From NCBI RefSeq assembly GCF_030013595.1, contig NZ_CP122768.1: 64,000 bases of DNA; one strand, 5' to 3'. The notes under the pieces are model-generated. The model was not told where the DNA came from, searched no databases, and saw nothing but the letters and a program-made list of their open reading frames with translations. Made by a program: the position numbers and the translations under genes. Source of the stretch: Escherichia coli. Its GTDB lineage: Bacteria > Pseudomonadota > Gammaproteobacteria > Enterobacterales > Enterobacteriaceae. Shown in pieces: positions 29,600 to 39,800 of this stretch (its first letter is position 1; each line of letters begins with the position of its first letter).

Positions 29600-29740
29600 G
29601 CGGGACGCTGAAACGGGAAAGCCCCTCCCGAGGAAGGGGCCATAAATAAGGAAAGGGTCATGATGAAGCTACTCATCATCGTGGTGCTCTTAGTCATAAG
29701 CTTCCCCGCTTACTAAGACTACCAGGGCGGGGGAAACCCC
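29600..29740 (-). ncRNA. sibB: Sib-type antisense sRNA (antitoxin of ibsB); approximate bounds
   Basis: Established arrangement: Sib RNAs are transcribed antisense across ibs ORFs. A minus-strand hairpin plus T-rich tract lies near 29600-29640. Bounds not verifiable here. Confidence 0.35.
29660..29716 (+). CDS. ibsB: type I toxin, small hydrophobic peptide
   Basis: 18-codon ORF encoding MMKLLIIVVLLVISFPAY preceded by AAGGAAAGGG; matches the Ibs toxin family. Confidence 0.7.
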   Translation: MMKLLIIVVLLVISFPAY

Positions 29741-29929
29741 GCTCTACCCTCACTCCTGAAAGTATGCCTTCACGATAAGATTGTCAATCCGCAGGCTTTG
29801 TAGTCTGCGATCCTGCCAGCAAATATTCTTTGCGAGTCGTTACGCAATAATCACAGAGGAAACTATTTTATTCACGCGTTAGCGATAGACTGCATTCAGG
29901 GCGAAAGGAGGTAAGCCGATGATTTCAGC

Positions 29930-30070
29930 GGGACGCTGAAACGGGAAAGCCTCTCCCGGAGAAGAGGGCTTTTAATAAGGAAAGGGTTATGATGAAGCAC
30001 GTCATCATACTGGTGATACTCTTAGTGATTAGCTTCCAGGCTTACTAAGAACACCAGGGGGAGGGGGAAA
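29930..30070 (-). ncRNA. sibA: Sib-type antisense sRNA (antitoxin of ibsA); approximate bounds
   Basis: Second copy of the repeat unit; inferred by analogy with the first copy. Confidence 0.35.
29989..30048 (+). CDS. ibsA: type I toxin, small hydrophobic peptide
   Basis: 19-codon ORF encoding MMKHVIILVILLVISFQAY preceded by AAGGAAAGGG. Confidence 0.7.
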   Translation: MMKHVIILVILLVISFQAY

Positions 30071-30268
30071 CCTCTCCCTAACCCTCACTCCTGAAATTAT
30101 GTCACTCCGCCCTTAGTGTCAATCGACGGCTCTCCGTTCTTGCGAGGCGAATAGCAAAATTTTCTGCGCCGCCGGGCCTAATTCTGAAAGTTTCTTCGTT
30201 TGCTCTTATTTCATTATTGCAGTCGGTATGATACCGGACCTCGATAATTCTCTAAGAAAGGATTTCTT

Positions 30269-30928
30269 ATGAGCGAACAAATCACGTTTGCCACCAGCGA
30301 TTTTGCCAGTAACCCGGAACCACGTTGCCCCTGCATTTTGCTGCTGGATGTTTCTGGTTCTATGAACGGTAGACCTATTAATGAACTTAACGCCGGATTG
30401 GTTACCTTTCGTGATGAACTGCTTGCTGATCCGCTGGCTTTAAAAAGAGTGGAACTCGGCATTGTGACGTTCGGCCCGGTGCATGTGGAACAACCCTTTA
30501 CCAGCGCCGCTAATTTTTTTCCGCCCATCCTGTTTGCCCAGGGCGATACACCAATGGGTGCGGCCATTACCAAAGCCCTGGATATGGTAGAGGAGCGGAA
30601 ACGTGAGTATCGTGCAAATGGTATTTCGTATTATCGCCCGTGGATTTTCCTGATTACCGATGGTGCACCAACCGATGAGTGGCAGGCTGCAGCCAACAAA
30701 GTGTTTCGGGGGGAAGAAGATAAAAGGTTTGCTTTCTTTTCCATCGGTGTTCAGGGGGCGGATATGAAGACGCTGGCACAAATTAGCGTTCGTCAGCCTT
30801 TGCCTCTGCAAGGATTACAATTCCGTGAACTGTTTAGCTGGTTATCCAGTTCGCTGCGTTCGGTTTCCCGCTCCACGCCGGGAACGGAAGTTGTGCTGGA
30901 AGCGCCAAAAGGCTGGACGTCAGTGTGA
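30269..30928 (+). CDS. yegL: von Willebrand factor A (vWA) domain protein, TerY-like
   Basis: 219-aa ORF with a MIDAS motif (LLLDVSGSM ... ITDGAPTD); recognised as YegL. Confidence 0.88.
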
Positions 30929-31686
30929 GCTGGCGTCTGGTCTATGCATCAACCGTTGGAACGTCGCACATCAGCGCGGACTTGCCTTGTCAGGATGCCT
31001 GCCAGATGCAGATTGCCTGGTTAAATGACCAGCAGCCATTATTGTCGGTATTTGTCGCTGATGGCGCAGGCAGTGTCTCGCAGGGTGGCGAAGGCGCGAT
31101 GCTCGCCGTCAATGAAGCGATGGCTTATATGTCGCAAAAAGTGCAGGGCGGGGAATTGGGGCTTAATGATGTCCTCGCCACAAATATGGTACTGACCATT
31201 CGTCAACGACTTTTTGCCGAGGCGGAAGCCAAAGAATTAGCGGTTCGCGATTTTGCCTGCACATTTCTGGGACTGATTTCATCGCCTGACGGCACCTTGA
31301 TTATGCAGATTGGCGATGGCGGCGTGGTGGTAGATTTGGGTCACGGTCTGCAATTGCCTCTCACGCCGATGGCGGGTGAATATGCCAACATGACGCACTT
31401 CATTACCGACGAAGATGCCGTTTCCAGACTGGAAACTTTCACCAGCACTGGGCGTGCGCACAAAGTTGCAGCATTTACGGATGGTATCCAGCGACTGGCG
31501 TTAAATATGCTGGATAATTCTCCTCATGTGCCTTTCTTTACCCCGTTTTTCAATGGACTGGCGGCAGCAACGCAGGAACAACTCGATTTATTACCTGAAT
31601 TGTTAAAGCAGTTTTTGTCCAGCCCGGCGGTAAACGAGCGTACGGATGATGATAAAACGTTGGCACTGGCGCTGTGGGCAGAGTGA
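30925..31686 (+). CDS. pphC: PP2C-family Ser/Thr protein phosphatase
   Basis: 253-aa ORF (YegK); GTG start overlaps the yegL stop (GTGA), implying translational coupling; VADGAGS / IGDGG motifs fit a PP2C fold. Confidence 0.85.
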
Positions 31687-31750
31687 GTTTCTCATGGCGG
31701 TTGAAGACAACAATTCAACCGCCAGTTTAAACAATAAATATAACGGCTGA

Positions 31751-32212
31751 TTAGCGAACTAATTTTGCTCTTAGCTCGTCGGCTTCTTCTTTTGGATAGG
31801 TGACCAATAAAGGATCAATGGTATAACCGCCGTAAATTTTATCCCCGCGCGTATACATCCAGTCTGAAATATCTTCTTTCTTGATTTTCCACTCCTGGCC
31901 ATATTCTACGTTTGTAACAATACCAGGGTCATTGCTGATTACGCCAATAAACATGCCGTTAGAATAAGTGACATCCGTAAGCCAGAAATGCTCGGTTCTT
32001 CCGTGATCGGTTATCGGGGCTTTGACTGCGAAAGTATCGGCATCTTTTTTATTCATAACCTCGATGAATTTATCGGTTTCTTTCCGCGCATGTTTAATCG
32101 CGTCAGACATCGCTTGTTTATCATAACCTCCCGTCACTAACGTATCCGAAACTTCACTAAAGCCCGCGGTAGTAAAAAATAGCAGACTCAACATAAGTAA
32201 TATCTTTTTCAT
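31751..32212 (-). CDS. yegJ: secreted DUF-type protein of unknown function
   Basis: 153-aa ORF with an N-terminal signal peptide (MKKILLMLSLLFFTTAGFS); AT-rich relative to neighbours. Confidence 0.8.
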   Translation of the reverse strand: MKKILLMLSLLFFTTAGFSEVSDTLVTGGYDKQAMSDAIKHARKETDKFIEVMNKKDADTFAVKAPITDHGRTEHFWLTDVTYSNGMFIGVISNDPGIVTNVEYGQEWKIKKEDISDWMYTRGDKIYGGYTIDPLLVTYPKEEADELRAKLVR

Positions 32213-32411
32213 TTTTTCTCCAGAATCCCTTTGTAGTCAAAGTTAGCAAAAACCTGTGGAAGTTAATCATTATCAGGCCGAAATTGAATTGTATCCTGAT
32301 AAAATTGCATTATCATTTTTATTCTTGAGTGGGTTTTCCCCATATAGAAATAATTTTAATGGTTAGTTGTTATTATTCATTGAAATATAATATAACTACC
32401 CGCGAAATATT

Positions 32412-34358
32412 ATGAAAACAAATATAAAAGTATTTACATCGACAGGTGAATTGACCACTCTTGGCCGTGAACTGGGCAAAGGTGGTGAAGGCGCGGTTTA
32501 TGATATCGAGGAGTTTGTCGATAGCGTCGCCAAGATTTATCACACGCCGCCACCCGCCTTAAAACAGGACAAACTTGCCTTTATGGCTGCGACAGCTGAC
32601 GCGCAGTTGTTGAATTATGTCGCCTGGCCGCAGGCAACGCTTCACGGTGGACGAGGCGGAAAAGTTATCGGTTTTATGATGCCAAAAGTTTCTGGTAAAG
32701 AACCGATTCATATGATCTATAGCCCGGCACATCGTCGCCAGAGTTACCCTCATTGTGCGTGGGATTTTCTACTCTATGTTGCGCGCAATATTGCTTCATC
32801 TTTTGCTACGGTTCACGAGCACGGGCACGTCGTGGGTGACGTAAACCAGAACAGTTTTATGGTAGGTCGCGACAGCAAAGTGGTACTGATTGATAGCGAC
32901 TCCTTTCAGATTAACGCCAATGGCACACTGCATTTATGCGAAGTCGGCGTGTCGCATTTTACGCCGCCAGAGCTACAAACCTTGTCGTCATTTGTCGGCT
33001 TTGAACGCACAGAAAATCACGATAATTTTGGCCTTGCGTTGCTGATTTTTCACGTCTTGTTTGGTGGCCGGCATCCTTATTCTGGTGTGCCGCTTATCTC
33101 TGATGCGGGTAATGCGCTGGAGACGGATATTACCCATTTCCGTTATGCCTACGCGTCAGATAATCAGCGACGTGGTTTAAAACCGCCGCCACGATCGATT
33201 CCGCTATCGATGTTACCGAGTGATGTTGAAGCCATGTTTCAGCAGGCATTCACGGAAAGTGGCGTGGCAACCGGGCGTCCGACGGCTAAAGCGTGGGTAG
33301 CGGCACTTGATTCTCTGCGCCAACAGTTAAAGAAATGTCCCGTTTCGGCAATGCATGTTTATCCCGCTCATTTGACCGACTGCCCGTGGTGTGCGCTGGA
33401 TAATCAAGGCGTTATCTATTTTATTGATCTCGGCGAAGAGGTCATTACCACCAGCGGTGATTTTGTGCTGGCGAAAGTCTGGGCGATGGTGATGGCGTCA
33501 GTAGCACCGCCAGCATTGCAATTGCCATTACCCGATCATTTCCAACCGACTGGCAGGCCGCTTCCTTTAGGCCTGTTACGGCGCGAATACATCATTCTGA
33601 TTGAGATCGCACTGTCAGCGTTATCGCTGTTGCTTTGCGGCCTTCAGGCAGAACCGCGTTATATTATTTTGGTTCCTGTGCTGTCGGCTATCTGGATTAT
33701 TGGCAGTCTGACAAGCAAAGCGTACAAAGCAGAAGTTCAGCAACGCCGTGAGGCATTTAATCGCGCGAAAATGGACTATGACCATTTATTCAGCCAGATC
33801 CAACAGTTGGGCGGGCTGGAAGGTTTTATCGCCAAACGGACGATGCTCGAAAAAATGAAGGACGAAATGCTCGGGTTACCGGAAGAAGAAAAACGTGCTC
33901 TGGCAGCACTTCACGACACCGCAAGGGAACGGCAGAAGCAGAAGTTTCTGGAGGGATTTTTTATTGATGTTGCCTCTATTCCCGGCGTTGGCCCTGCGCG
34001 TAAAGCGGCGTTACGGTCCTTTGGTATTGAAACAGCAGCGGATGTTACCCGTCGTGGGGTTAAGCAAGTGAAAGGGTTTGGTGATCATCTGACCCAGGCA
34101 GTTATCGACTGGAAAGCAAGTTGCGAACGCCGTTTTGTGTTCAGGCCGAATGAAGCGGTAACGCCAGCAGACAGACAAGCGGTAATGGCGAAAATGACCG
34201 CCAAACGACATCGGCTGGAATCGACGTTGACTGTCGGCGCGACAGAGTTGCAGCGATTCCGCCTTCATGCTCCAGCACGGACCATGCCGTTGATGGAACC
34301 GTTACGTCAGGCGGCAGAAAAACTGGCTCAGGCGCAGGCAGATTTAAGCCGCTGCTGA
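32412..34358 (+). CDS. yegI: membrane-anchored atypical Ser/Thr protein kinase with C-terminal helix-hairpin-helix
   Basis: 648-aa ORF; kinase-like motifs (GKGGEGAVY, VAKIY, HGHVVGDVNQNS, DSDSF), two hydrophobic helices near residues 395-440, and an HhH (IPGVGPARKAALRSFGIETAADV). Confidence 0.85.
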   Translation: MKTNIKVFTSTGELTTLGRELGKGGEGAVYDIEEFVDSVAKIYHTPPPALKQDKLAFMAATADAQLLNYVAWPQATLHGGRGGKVIGFMMPKVSGKEPIHMIYSPAHRRQSYPHCAWDFLLYVARNIASSFATVHEHGHVVGDVNQNSFMVGRDSKVVLIDSDSFQINANGTLHLCEVGVSHFTPPELQTLSSFVGFERTENHDNFGLALLIFHVLFGGRHPYSGVPLISDAGNALETDITHFRYAYASDNQRRGLKPPPRSIPLSMLPSDVEAMFQQAFTESGVATGRPTAKAWVAALDSLRQQLKKCPVSAMHVYPAHLTDCPWCALDNQGVIYFIDLGEEVITTSGDFVLAKVWAMVMASVAPPALQLPLPDHFQPTGRPLPLGLLRREYIILIEIALSALSLLLCGLQAEPRYIILVPVLSAIWIIGSLTSKAYKAEVQQRREAFNRAKMDYDHLFSQIQQLGGLEGFIAKRTMLEKMKDEMLGLPEEEKRALAALHDTARERQKQKFLEGFFIDVASIPGVGPARKAALRSFGIETAADVTRRGVKQVKGFGDHLTQAVIDWKASCERRFVFRPNEAVTPADRQAVMAKMTAKRHRLESTLTVGATELQRFRLHAPARTMPLMEPLRQAAEKLAQAQADLSRC

Positions 34359-34370
34359 GCCAGTTTTCAA

Positions 34371-35723
34371 TTAACGAAACACCACTTCCGCCCAGCGTGC
34401 CAGCCCGGCGGTGACGGAGCCAAAGTCATCGCCGCCTGCAATCGGAATGCCCGGCAACTGTTCTGCCAGCGCTTTTTTAATCAGCGGCGAACGGGCGCTA
34501 CCGCCGGTCAGGTATATAACGTCCGGTTTTTCCTGGGCGTTATCCAGCGCCAGTTGCACCTGTTCCAGAATTCGCGCAAGCGGCTGGCTGAGGGCGCTTT
34601 CCAGCCCTTGCTGGCTAATCAGCGTAGCCAGTTCATCGCTGATAAACGGCAGTGAGGCGCGAGTTTCCGCAGTGCTGGAAAGAGCAATTTTGCTCTCTTC
34701 TGCGCTGCGTACCAGGCGATAGCTTAAACGCTGACGCCAGACTTTCTGTAACAGGGCCACTTTTTCCGGTTCGCGGGCATCGCGTACCAGATCGTTAAGC
34801 AGACGACCGTTGGCACTACTGTAGAAATCACTCTGCGCAGGAACGTCGTTGATGGCAACCGCATTCCACCACGGCAGAATCGGCAGGGCGATGCCTTTTT
34901 CGGTTTCGCCACCCATGCCCAGTAACGGCATCAGGTTTTTAAACGCCAGCGCGATATCCAGATCGTTACCGCCAATACGGCAACCACTGTGACCCAGCAG
35001 GCTGGCTTCACGATCGAGACGCGAACGCCACTGCGGCCCCATCAGCAGCAATGAACAGTCAGTCGTACCACCGCCGATATCCACCACCAGCACCCGTTTT
35101 TCTTCCTGCAAGGTGGCTTCGTAATCCAGCCCAGCCGCGACCGGCTCGTACTGGAATACCACGTCCCTGAATCCGGCACGCTTCGCCGCGCGTTCCAGAA
35201 TCCCTTGCGCCTGGGCGTTTGCTTCATCGCCGCCAAGCCCCTGGAAGTTGATCGGGCGACCAATCACTGCCTGAGTAATTGCCTCCGGCAGTTGAGCCTG
35301 CGCCTGTTGGCGAATGTGCAACATCATTGCGCAGACCAGATCCTCAAACAGCGCTACCTGCTGCGGTTTTAAGCCGCTGGCACCGAGGAACGATTTTGGT
35401 GATTTCACAAACCACACTTCTTCTGGATCATCAATGTACTGTGCCAGTGAGGAAAGACCGAACTGCACGCTTTTCGCCGTAACATCGATATCTTCTTCGC
35501 GGTTATAACGAATCGCCCGACGCAACAGCGCCTGCGTTTCATCGTCGTCTGCCGGAACATCATGATGGCGGTACAGCCATTCGCTTACCGCTTCACGCGT
35601 TGGCGCGCAAAGCATTGAAGGCAGCAGCGTGCTGTCGTTTTCCATTTTTAGCAAGTGCGGTTTACCGTCACGCATGACCGCCACTGAACAGTTTGCTGTA
35701 CCGTAATCAAAACCAATAAACAC
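34371..35723 (-). CDS. yegD: Hsp70/actin-fold ATPase (DnaK-like chaperone homologue)
   Basis: 450 aa from the GTG at 35723 (VFIGFDYGTANCSVAV..., Hsp70 phosphate-1 motif; VVDIGGGTTDCSLL phosphate-2); the ORF track extends 21 codons upstream without an SD. Confidence 0.82.
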   Translation of the reverse strand: MFIGFDYGTANCSVAVMRDGKPHLLKMENDSTLLPSMLCAPTREAVSEWLYRHHDVPADDDETQALLRRAIRYNREEDIDVTAKSVQFGLSSLAQYIDDPEEVWFVKSPKSFLGASGLKPQQVALFEDLVCAMMLHIRQQAQAQLPEAITQAVIGRPINFQGLGGDEANAQAQGILERAAKRAGFRDVVFQYEPVAAGLDYEATLQEEKRVLVVDIGGGTTDCSLLLMGPQWRSRLDREASLLGHSGCRIGGNDLDIALAFKNLMPLLGMGGETEKGIALPILPWWNAVAINDVPAQSDFYSSANGRLLNDLVRDAREPEKVALLQKVWRQRLSYRLVRSAEESKIALSSTAETRASLPFISDELATLISQQGLESALSQPLARILEQVQLALDNAQEKPDVIYLTGGSARSPLIKKALAEQLPGIPIAGGDDFGSVTAGLARWAEVVFR

Positions 35724-35856
35724 GAAATAATCCCCATGCCGGTGAAGAAGGGGCGTGACTTTAGCGAAATGTTGCCGTCGCGACAACCGGAATATGAAAG
35801 CAAAGCGTAGCGTCTGAATAACGTTTATGCTGAAAGCGGATTAACAAGGAGATGCG

Positions 35857-36705
35857 ATGTATACCCTGAACTGGCAGCCGCCGTATGACTGGTCGTGGAT
35901 GTTGGGATTTCTCGCCGCCCGTGCAGTGAGTGGTGTGGAAACGGTCGCGGACAGTTATTATGCCCGTAGTCTGGCGGTGGGCGAATATCGCGGCGTGGTG
36001 ACTGCTATTCCGGATATAGCCCGCCATACTCTGCACATAAATTTAAGTGCAGGTTTAGAACCCGTTGCCGCTGAGTGTCTGGCGAAAATGAGCCGCCTGC
36101 TTGATCTGCAATGTAACCCGCAGATTGTTAACGGTGCGTTGGGCAAGTTAGGCGCGGCGCGGCCCGGATTGCGTTTACCCGGCAGTGTTGATGCTTTTGA
36201 GCAGGGCGTGCGGGCGATTTTAGGCCAACTGGTGAGCGTGGCGATGGCGGCAAAATTGACCGCCAGAGTGGCACAGCTTTATGGCGAACGGCTGGATGAT
36301 TTTCCGGAGTATATCTGCTTCCCCACGCCTCAGCGGCTGGCAGCAGCCGACCCGCAGGCATTAAAAGCGTTAGGCATGCCGTTGAAACGGGCAGAGGCAC
36401 TGATTCATCTGGCAAATGTGGCGCTGGAGGGCAGCTTACCAATGACAATTCCGGGCGATGTGGAGCAGGCGATGAAAACGCTGCAAACTTTTCCGGGTAT
36501 CGGGCGCTGGACGGCGAATTATTTCGCTTTGCGTGGCTGGCAGGCGAAAGATGTTTTCCTGCCGGATGATTATCTGATTAAACAGCGATTTCCGGGAATG
36601 ACACCAGCACAAATCCGCCGTTATGCCGAACGCTGGAAGCCCTGGCGCTCTTATGCGCTGTTGCATATCTGGTATACGGAAGGCTGGCAACCAGACGAAG
36701 CATGA
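35857..36705 (+). CDS. alkA: 3-methyladenine DNA glycosylase II
   Basis: 282-aa ORF (MYTLNWQPPYDWSWMLGFLAARAVS...) recognised as AlkA. Confidence 0.92.
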   Translation: MYTLNWQPPYDWSWMLGFLAARAVSGVETVADSYYARSLAVGEYRGVVTAIPDIARHTLHINLSAGLEPVAAECLAKMSRLLDLQCNPQIVNGALGKLGAARPGLRLPGSVDAFEQGVRAILGQLVSVAMAAKLTARVAQLYGERLDDFPEYICFPTPQRLAAADPQALKALGMPLKRAEALIHLANVALEGSLPMTIPGDVEQAMKTLQTFPGIGRWTANYFALRGWQAKDVFLPDDYLIKQRFPGMTPAQIRRYAERWKPWRSYALLHIWYTEGWQPDEA

Positions 36706-36709
36706 CGTT

Positions 36710-36815
36710 GGTCGCCGGATGCGGTGCGAGCGCCTTATCCGGCCTGGAGAATGAGCGATTTGTAGATTTGTAGGCCTGATAAGACGCGTTAGCGTCGCAT
36801 CAGGCAATGGGCAAA
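36710..36815. repeat. REP elements
   Basis: GCCGGATGCGGTG...GCCTTATCCGGCC and GTAGGCCTGATAAGACGCG...CGTCGCATCAGGC palindromic units in the convergent alkA/dgcE gap. Confidence 0.7.
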
Positions 36816-36822
36816 CGCTCCC

Positions 36823-39800
36823 TCAGTTAATCGCGAAATAACTACTATTCACCAGCAAATCCAGCGGTTGGGCATCGGCAATCACATCACCATAAATCAG
36901 ATCGACGCCGATGCCCGAAAGCGTATCCATCACTAAGGGTAAAACGACTGGCCCGGCTATAGTCTTCACCCCGAGTCGCTGAGCGTGCCCCAGAATAATC
37001 GTAATCAGCATCTCATCCATCAAATTACCCTGCACGTTGGCGCATAAATCCCCATCAAGTAGCAGGTAATCTGCCATATTCGCTTTCAGCGAGTTGAAGA
37101 TTTGCAGATCGCGGCCCACCTGGCTGAGCACTATCCGACATCCCGCCAGCCGCAGTTTTTGCACGCTTTCTGCGTGATCTAAAATCGCTTCTGCCGGAAT
37201 AACCAGATGTAATAACCGTGGTGGTAGAGGGCTATTTTCCATCTGCTCAAGCAGGTCATTCACCAGCGTGGCGCTACTCAAACCGGCAACGGAAAGGGGG
37301 AGGGCGATGCTTATGCCTTTACTGGCAACCGCTTTGGCAGCCTGCTGGAAAAATTCGTGGAATACCCGTCGGTCAAGAGCATGGCTAAGTGCCGGATCGC
37401 TGCAGCTACGACGAAATGTTTGTTCATCAATAATCTCGCCTTCGCAACTCCACAGCTTAAGTGAAATCAGCCACAAATTACGCGCTTCCGGGATCCGTGG
37501 CGAAGCGACACCGTGGGCGATCATCATCAACTGATTCTCTTTAATCATCCGCCACTGTTCATCAAGCGACATCGCCGCCTGTTCGCTATGTGCGGCAGCT
37601 TGCTGCGGTTCGTAAATCGTCACCCGGCCCCGGCCACCATTTTTGGAGGCATAACAGGCGATATCAGCCTGCGACATCACTTCAGCCGCCTGATGATTGT
37701 TGTCATCAATCAAGGTAATCCCGGCACTGGCACCTACCCGATGTACACGTCCTTCCCAGATAAAGTGATAGTCATTCACAGCACTGATAATACGTGTAGC
37801 GATAAAACGCGCACTTTCGACATTGCAGTCTGGCAGCAGCAGACCAAATTCATCACCGCCGAGCCGCGCCAGCACGTCGCTGGAGCGCAGCATGCTCAGC
37901 ATCAACGACGCCAGTTCGCGCAGTAAAGCGTCGCCCGCCGCATGCCCGGCGCTGTCATTCACCGCTTTAAAGCGATCAAGATCGATAAACACCAGGGCAT
38001 GTCGCTGATGCGTACTGTTTACCGTTTGCAGCAGGATGCGTAGTTGCTTCTCAAAACTGGCGCGATTGGCGAGATGCGTCAGTGCATCATGGGAGGCGCT
38101 GTAGCTCAGCTGGCGCAGCATTTTGCGTGATTCGGTGACGTCCTGAATCACCAGAACCGAACCAATATTGCTGCCGTCCAGAGTACTTAACGGCGTAATA
38201 CTGTAATGCACGTCGTAGCTGCCGCCGCTCCGGCAGTGCAACACCACATCTTGTTCAATCGCGGAACGTGAGGTGTCGGCACTGTAAATGTTTTCCATTA
38301 ATGGTCCGTTGTCGCCAAAAGTAATATGCAACACCGTCAGGAGCGGAACACCTAATGCTTCTTCCTGCGTCCAGCCGCTCATCTTCTCCGCCACTGGATT
38401 CATAAAGGTAATTTTCATTGCCATATCAATACAGACCACGGCTTCGCCGATGGAGTCCAGCGTAATGTGCAGGCGCTCTTTTTCCTGAAACAATGCCTCG
38501 TTAAGCTGTTTAACCTCGGTCATATCCATATTAATGCCGAGCAGGCGTTCGACTTCGCCTTCTTTATTCAGTACCCGGTTGGCGAGGGCGCGGATATGGC
38601 GGATGCCATCTTTCACGGCAATGCGAAATTCCAGCTTAAAGGGCGAGCGTGATTGCAACGAATCACGAATCACTTTTTCGGCATGCTGGCGATCTTCCGG
38701 CAGCACGCACTCGTACCACACCTGCCAGTTCGGTTTGATATGCGGAGGAATTTCATACAGCTCGAACATCCGCTTATCCCAGCTAAAAATATTCGGCTTC
38801 AGCTCCCACTCCCAGATGCCAATCCCGCCCGCTTCGTTAGCCAGCGTGATGCGTTCCATCAGTTGCTGATTCACCTGTTCGGTGCGTTTTAGCTCGTTAA
38901 TGTCTTCAATCTGAGCGATAAAATAGAGCGGCGTGCCATCCGTGTGGCGCACCAGTGAGACGGCAAGCAACGCCCAGACAACATCGCCATTGCGGTTGTA
39001 GTAACGTTTTTCCATTGAATAGGTGTTTATTTCACCGCTTATCAGCTTTTCAACCTGTTGGAGATCTTTATTGAGATCCTCCGGCCAGGTCAGTTGCTGA
39101 AAGGTGAGTCCGCGCAGCTCTTCCTGACTGTAACCGAGAAACTGGCAGAGTGCTTTGTTGGATTGCAGCCATTGTCCCTCGGTGCCCACTAATGCCATGC
39201 CGATGGCGGAATATTCCATGGCGTTCCGAAAGCGGGTTTCGCTTTCGGAAATGTGTTTGCGTTCCGCACGAAAGGCATACATCACCATGGTCATGATGTT
39301 GGCGGGCAGCAGGATCAGCAAAAACGGTAGCCACGGCATATGGCTCGTCAGGTACGTACGCGGCGTAGCAAGCAGGGAGGGATCCGCGGCCATCATCAGC
39401 GACACCATCATTACCGTGGTAAGGAAGATCAAAAAGGCTTCCATTCGTGGCAGGCGCACGGCGCTCCACATCAACAGCACAATAATGAAAGTAAAAGGCC
39501 ACGGCAGATACAGCATCGAAAGCCAGCTTAACGTCAGTGTGATGGCTAACGTGAGCAGCGACTCAAAAAGCAACCGTGGGTTGCGATGGCGCAGCAGATA
39601 GTGTGGTTTAAATAACAATCCCAGCGGCACCAGTGCCAGAGCGCCGATGGATTCTGACAGTACCCATATCAAAAATGCCCTGAGAGGATCGTCTCCGGGC
39701 GTCAGCAGGACAACCAGAACACCCCCCAACAGAGGTGGAACAATGGCGCTGCCGAGTGCCAGACGCAGCCAGTCAGCCAGATTTTGCAAGGGGTTATACC

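Follow-up and report, generated by a model that had tools for sequence, protein, structure and literature searches.

We found that yegD (34371..35723, minus strand), in the 64,000-nucleotide stretch of Escherichia coli DNA analyzed here (the window), encodes a protein that consists entirely of an Hsp70 nucleotide-binding domain (NBD), and that its tail-to-tail position with the kinase gene yegI is an accident of the insertion of a genomic island. Taken as a whole, our reading is that yegD is a vertically inherited gene with a GTG start, that its NBD-only product serves as a partner-binding switch, and that the insertion brought it next to yegI; we consider this reading very probably correct. 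Databases and published work already contain the gene with its start codon, its family assignment, and its convergent arrangement, and the only additions made here are that the yegI adjacency is accidental and that YegD is an NBD and nothing else. What these additions offer is clarification of a negative kind.

Identity and conservation of yegD

The coding sequence comprises 450 codons and a TAA stop and encodes an Hsp70-superfamily ATPase. It coincides exactly with the RefSeq annotation at the equivalent position (yegD, "molecular chaperone," WP_000469697.1, 450 aa), in agreement with the name that the preliminary description had given it, and RefSeq places yegI convergent on it and alkA divergent from it. 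The product matched the NCBIfam family NF008673 at 811 bits against a cutoff of 331, with residues 1 to 450 on profile positions 1 to 450, and Pfam HSP70 at an E value of 1.7e-24, values that put the reality of the gene far above chance. It was present in 5417 of the 5426 complete E. coli genomes, and bases 34000 to 36000 of the window were 100% identical to several complete E. coli genomes. Carrying the annotation of strain CP53 over the whole window was dropped; the window departs from CP53 outside ~17.8 to 51.4 kb.

Natural E. coli/Shigella alleles of yegD (P0066, P0072, P0008, P0105, and P0001; window 34371-35723) had changes within the ATPase core. Some E. coli/Shigella alleles carried in-frame deletions of residues 141 to 169, 311 to 335, or 316 to 353, and another natural allele type carried a 30-residue duplication after residue 239. 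The deletion of residues 141 to 169 takes out the AVIGRP strand and sits between AQAQ repeats. These alleles suggest that some lineages can dispense with yegD and that the gene is decaying in them. The gene was lost in a 52-kb deletion of viable phage-resistant Klebsiella mutants (PMC13224724).

Start codon and leader of yegD

The mechanical open reading frame spans 34371..35786 on the minus strand, beginning from a TTG at 35786 and encoding 471 aa. The homologous codon in relatives, the ribosome-binding site, and the protein lengths all place the start at the GTG at 35721..35723 (minus), 21 codons downstream of the TTG, from which the N terminus reads V/M-FIGFDYGTANC. The homologous codon was GTG in seven sequences, from E. 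coli, Salmonella, two Citrobacter species, Pseudocitrobacter, Enterobacter sp., and Superficieibacter, and ATG in Acerihabitans, Providencia, two Vibrio species, Aeromonas, and Amphritea. Five of these relatives, namely Superficieibacter, Acerihabitans, the two Vibrio species, and Amphritea, have an in-frame stop upstream and no second in-frame start, so the homologous codon is the only possible start in them. Among the protein clusters nearest to YegD, 101 of 120 were 450 aa long, including clusters of 8268, 2367, and 1805 members, and diverse members of the family begin 1 to 16 residues from the DxGT motif.

At a distance of 7 nt upstream of the GTG is a Shine-Dalgarno-like GGGGA (35731..35735, minus), which does not vary among E. 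coli, Salmonella, Citrobacter, and Pseudocitrobacter. The anti-Shine-Dalgarno duplex for the GTG, at −5.5 kcal/mol, was the best among all in-frame candidates, compared with +2.2 kcal/mol for the TTG at 35784..35786 (minus). We rejected the TTG, which has no Shine-Dalgarno sequence, is thrown out of frame in both Citrobacter species by a 1-nt indel between the GGGGA and the GTG, is missing from, or cut off by a stop codon in, Superficieibacter and more remote relatives, and lies within a conserved −35-like hexamer, TTGTCG. These results bear out the preliminary description, which had taken the GTG at 35723 as the best start, had seen no ribosome-binding site at the TTG, and had pointed to a conserved Hsp70 phosphate-1 motif at the N terminus.

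The TTGTCG hexamer belongs to a candidate sigma-70 promoter of yegD, TTGTCG-17 nt-TAAAGT (35758..35786, minus), both hexamers of which are conserved across four genera. A sigma-70 scan did not call this element, which has 8 of 12 consensus matches and fell under the threshold; read from the sequence, it would be the yegD promoter. The leader and promoter region (35724-35790, minus; TAAAGTCACGCCCCTTCTTCACCGGCATGGGGA) was near-invariant in four genera, above the synonymous-site conservation of the gene. A structured 5′ leader was considered and rejected, with a minimum free energy of −10.7 kcal/mol (z = +1.2 versus shuffled sequences), and an Rfam search of the leader region matched no family.

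The alkA-yegD intergenic region is 133 bp long and contains, at 35797-35831 (plus), a TATGCT −10-like hexamer and the sequence AAAGCAA, which is presumably the box bound by Ada in the alkA promoter and was conserved in all four of the genera aligned. The candidate promoter of the divergent yegD lies only ~10 bp from this box, and because of this closeness Ada binding might affect yegD. RyhB activates the translation, not the transcription, of yegD, according to lacZ fusions (PMC4666370). The best duplex of RyhB with yegD positions −70 to +30 was −25.3 kcal/mol, which was equaled or bettered by 91% of shuffled targets and by 81% of random genomic windows, giving no support for a specific site.

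YegD is an Hsp70 nucleotide-binding domain and nothing else

We added the E. coli DnaK NBD, its sequence verified against 1dkg, 2kho, and other entries, to an alignment of 35 YegD-family members. The phosphate-1 (DxGTxN), phosphate-2 (DxGGGTxD), and adenosine (GG) motifs were invariant in all 35. The catalytic and nucleotide-binding residues of DnaK mapped onto YegD as follows: D8 to D6, T11 to T9, K70 to K110, E171 to E193, D194 to D215, G196-198 to G217-219, T199 to T220, D201 to D222, G228-229 to G251-252, D231 and D233 to D254 and D256, E267 to E342, K270 to K345, and G341-342 to G407-408. All of them were invariant in the 35 sequences, with the exception of YegD D254 (34/35). We infer from this conservation that YegD has ATPase activity.

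All 450 residues of YegD make up the NBD. The last residue of the DnaK NBD, G384, aligns with R450, the last residue of YegD, and because the protein ends exactly at the NBD boundary, it has neither an interdomain linker nor a substrate-binding domain (SBD). The PDB sequence matches of YegD were all to DnaK/Hsp70 NBDs, with alignments that stop within the NBD, and the Pfam HSP70 match extended only to about profile position 372 of 599. An AF2 model of YegD had a mean pLDDT of 94.1 and a pTM of 0.90, and Foldseek against the PDB returned only Hsp70-family chains (E of about 1e-20), the fold match having a TM score of about 0.7 when normalized to NBD-only chains of ~380 aa. The Hsp70 ATPase core proposed in the preliminary description is thus upheld by the Pfam match, the invariant motifs, and the fold matches, which place YegD in the Hsp70 clade of the ASKHA fold. 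The C-terminal region, to which that description had assigned an uncertain substrate-binding character, proved to be lobe II of the ATPase, because YegD residues 327 to 427 align with DnaK residues 245 to 355, R450 aligns with G384, and the model matches Hsp70 NBDs only.

At the positions of DnaK R167, N170, and T173, which we take from the DnaK-DnaJ literature to be the J-domain contacts, YegD has V189, Y192, and V195, and the corresponding columns of the family are variable or hydrophobic (E/S/R/V/A, Y/F/L, and V/I/L, respectively). YegD has three extra segments compared with DnaK (residues 45 to 80, 260 to 306, and 328 to 339) and is missing DnaK residues 84 to 113 in subdomain IB. Charged residues abound in the first insert, which belongs to subdomain IB and whose length among family members lies between 9 and 117 residues, and the second, at the base of subdomain IIB, has a constant length of ~49 residues. 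The long members of the family had no added Pfam domain, except for one probable gene merge with NeuB.

The convergent neighbor yegI arrived with an island

The yegI stop (TGA, 34356-34358) and the yegD stop (TAA, 34371-34373) are separated by a gap of 12 bp (34359..34370), just as the preliminary description had read this convergent pair. The gap is the right-hand junction of an Escherichia-specific island (30157..34358, plus) carrying yegL, pphC/yegK, yegJ (on the minus strand), and yegI, whose Pfam domains are a vWA domain in yegL, PP2C in pphC/yegK, DUF2314 in yegJ, and a Ser/Thr kinase with an HhH tail in yegI. The corresponding gene order in Salmonella enterica, Citrobacter freundii, and Pseudocitrobacter is asmA-dcd-udk-dgcE-alkA<>yegD-ibs-mdtABC, and yegI, yegJ, pphC, and yegL are absent from these yegD loci. 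In pairwise alignments to Salmonella, Citrobacter, and Pseudocitrobacter, homology ran up to the yegD stop (34371) and resumed at ~30105-30156 (sibA/ibsA), which marks an insertion of ~4.2 kb directly after the yegD stop. The arrangement in Escherichia marmotae was identical, down to the 12-bp gap, save that yegJ was missing. A search of the island junctions for a common direct or inverted word of at least 8 nt found none. The island, which carries a mobile TerY-P-like triad and, in some strains, yegJ, entered directly after the yegD stop in an ancestor of Escherichia. The gene yegD itself stands alone and belongs to the backbone shared by enterobacteria, asmA-dcd-udk-dgcE-alkA<>yegD-sibA/ibs-mdtABCD, and its tail-to-tail arrangement with yegI is an accident of the island insertion.

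Within the island, yegJ (31751-32212, minus) has a GC content of 41% and splits the triad. The N-terminal segment of its product, read by eye, is hydrophobic and signal peptide-like. In Superficieibacter electus, a 74%-identical copy of yegJ lies directly downstream of yegD, beside genes for SUKH, an Rhs fragment, Tli3, and Tle3_C. It may be that yegJ is an orphan immunity-type gene and that the 3′ flank of yegD is an insertion hotspot. Between mdtA and the island are two tandem SIB RNA/ibs type I toxin-antitoxin modules (29645-29787 and 29974-30122, minus; Rfam RF00113, 142 and 149.5 bits), and Salmonella and Citrobacter have a single ibs gene at the corresponding place.

We scanned one genome per species and obtained at least 78 YegD-family loci of up to 10 kb each from Gamma-, Beta-, and Alphaproteobacteria and a few other groups. 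A tblastn search with YegI, PphC, and YegL placed none of them within 10 kb of the yegD-family gene at any of 83 non-E. coli loci, among the matches listed. Clustering of the 907 open reading frames that flank YegD-family genes likewise showed lineage-specific synteny only and no recurrent partner, among the matches listed. Homologues of YegI with ~60% identity had a scattered distribution, being found in Klebsiella spallanzanii, Piscinibacter, Chromobacterium, and two metagenomic contigs. All five of the non-Escherichia triad loci examined had a tight three-gene vWA-PP2C-kinase cassette, and none of the five had an HSP70-family gene within 9 kb. Four of these cassettes lay amid defense or mobile genes (GmrSD, type I restriction-modification, SymE, BrxR, JetB, AbiH, KAP NTPase, Tn7-like, and Mrr), and the fifth lay amid housekeeping-type genes. 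This suggests that the vWA-PP2C-kinase(HhH) triad is a mobile TerY-P-like defense or signaling cassette, to be studied as a self-contained unit. The preliminary description had raised a functional link of yegD to yegI/K/L, itself calling it speculative, and the counts from both sides give it no support. The co-occurrence analysis that it proposed gave, at the level of gene neighborhoods, the outcome it had named as contrary to the link: among the loci examined, only Escherichia (E. coli and E. marmotae) has yegD next to the triad. Within E. coli, yegI was found in 5410 of the 5426 genomes and yegJ in 1923 of them; as yegD and yegI are both near-universal there, the species is uninformative on their covariation.

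Proposed role of YegD and alternatives

Judging from its anatomy, YegD is most likely an ATP-driven partner-binding switch, not a peptide-clamping chaperone. It retains every residue that Hsp70s use to bind and hydrolyze Mg-ATP. ATP binding and hydrolysis would open and close its two lobes, and this movement would change the two family-specific surfaces formed by the helical insert in IB and the ~49-aa insert at the base of IIB, which may bind a partner. YegD would then act as a nucleotide-controlled switch or cofactor, not as a chaperone driven by a J protein. As for coupling to a J protein or GrpE, no recurrent neighbor of yegD was seen among the at least 78 species, as judged by clustering and, for only part of the neighbors, by Pfam. 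A search of PADLOC-DB 2.0 with YegD returned only PDC-M61B, over 27 residues (206 to 232, the GGGTTD motif) and at 22.5 bits, a trivial match. The intact catalytic residues, the lack of a J-domain docking site, and the two family-specific inserts provide handles for the study of YegD.

The literature on yegD turned up no biochemical or genetic study of what its product does. Standard conditions give little expression from the locus (PMC13232886). The gene is RpoS-repressed in EDL933 (PMC2907692), and turned up in an overexpression screen for H2O2 resistance (PMC8228696), and its Photobacterium orthologue was down 7.3-fold at 37°C (PMC7396505). None of these papers, nor those on RyhB, yegJ, the excludon, and the Klebsiella deletion, establishes what YegD does.

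An alternative that we consider unlikely is that YegD is a nucleotide-exchange factor or cochaperone for DnaK, HscA, or HscC, binding their NBD as Hsp110/Sse1 does for eukaryotic Hsp70. Hsp110/Sse1 are exchange factors and Ssz1 is a subunit of the ribosome-associated complex, all of them atypical Hsp70s. These proteins have a C-terminal SBD-like region that YegD does not, and their identity to YegD is only ~20%.

It is improbable that YegD works with YegL, PphC, and YegI in Escherichia as a kinase substrate or helper, or that yegD and yegI are bound by mutual transcriptional interference as an excludon. Terminators do not fit into the 12-bp gap, with so short a gap an overlap of the convergent transcripts can hardly be avoided, and the yegD-yegI pair is among the convergent excludon candidates defined by RNA-seq (PMC12288877). 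Overexpression of yegJ strongly raised yegD mRNA (PMC13232886), and both yegD and yegI are near-universal in E. coli. However, yegD is kept without the triad in Salmonella, Citrobacter, Pseudocitrobacter, Enterobacter, Superficieibacter, and more than 70 other species, and the triad is found without an Hsp70-like neighbor in the Klebsiella, Piscinibacter, Chromobacterium, and metagenomic loci given above. Moreover, the junction falls on the yegD stop codon, as an insertion predicts, and any excludon would have arisen as a side effect of it. Three terminators were predicted between or inside yegD and yegI, versus 2.3 ± 1.7 by chance, and thus not above chance. The alkA-dgcE pair (window 36705-36823) is also convergent with a short gap and is likewise an excludon candidate (PMC12288877), and alkA and dgcE, as called at the loci of Salmonella and Citrobacter, share ~30 bp.

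Regulatory cross talk between yegD and the island, acquired in Escherichia after the insertion, is possible. A bolder extension is a long shot: yegD would have come under island regulation after the insertion, by yegI read-through or by YegJ via RNase E, as a RyhB-activated stress switch wired to a TerY-P-like kinase module, and the YegD family would be a group of Hsp70 ATPases that bind partners and whose helical arm is hypervariable.

It is also distinctly improbable that YegD is a polymerizing actin-like protein of the MreB/ParM type, as the annotation "actin family protein" in some records might imply; YegD did not show the pair of traits expected of such a filament former, nucleotide-dependent polymerization together with a place closer to the actin/MreB clade than to Hsp70. 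Least credible by far is that YegD works as an ordinary Hsp70 chaperone whose C-terminal substrate-binding region has degenerated, since, despite the RefSeq product name and its classing with Hsp70 chaperones in genetic screens (PMC3930520), YegD ends at the equivalent of DnaK G384 before any linker, beta-sandwich SBD, or helical lid, is modeled confidently over its entire chain as a single NBD, varies at the J-domain contact residues, which in canonical Hsp70 chaperones are conserved, and, in Photobacterium, lacks heat induction.

Comparison with known systems

YegD belongs to the family NF008673/PRK11678 ("molecular chaperone"; E. coli K-12 b2069) and does not differ from it, the yegD gene described here being the type member. 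With the NBD of DnaK/Hsp70 (1dkg_D, 7n46, and 8w1m), YegD shares the fold and the phosphate-1, phosphate-2, connect, and adenosine motifs, whereas the linker, the SBD-beta, and the lid that follow in DnaK are all absent from YegD. It should not be treated as a classical chaperone bearing an SBD, nor as a partner of the kinase triad. The neighbors of yegD on the island compare with a different system. In searches against PADLOC models, YegL and PphC had no match at an E value of 0.01 or below. The TerY-P triad of Anantharaman et al. (2012) and Gao et al. (2020), summarized in PMC11090510, consists of a TerY-like vWA protein, a PP2C phosphatase, and a Ser/Thr kinase. The kinase of that triad carries a zinc ribbon or OB-fold tail, whereas the tail of YegI is HhH-like (a weak HHH_5 match). 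The genes yegL, pphC, and yegI have the same three-gene architecture as the TerY-P triad, and yegD lies outside it.
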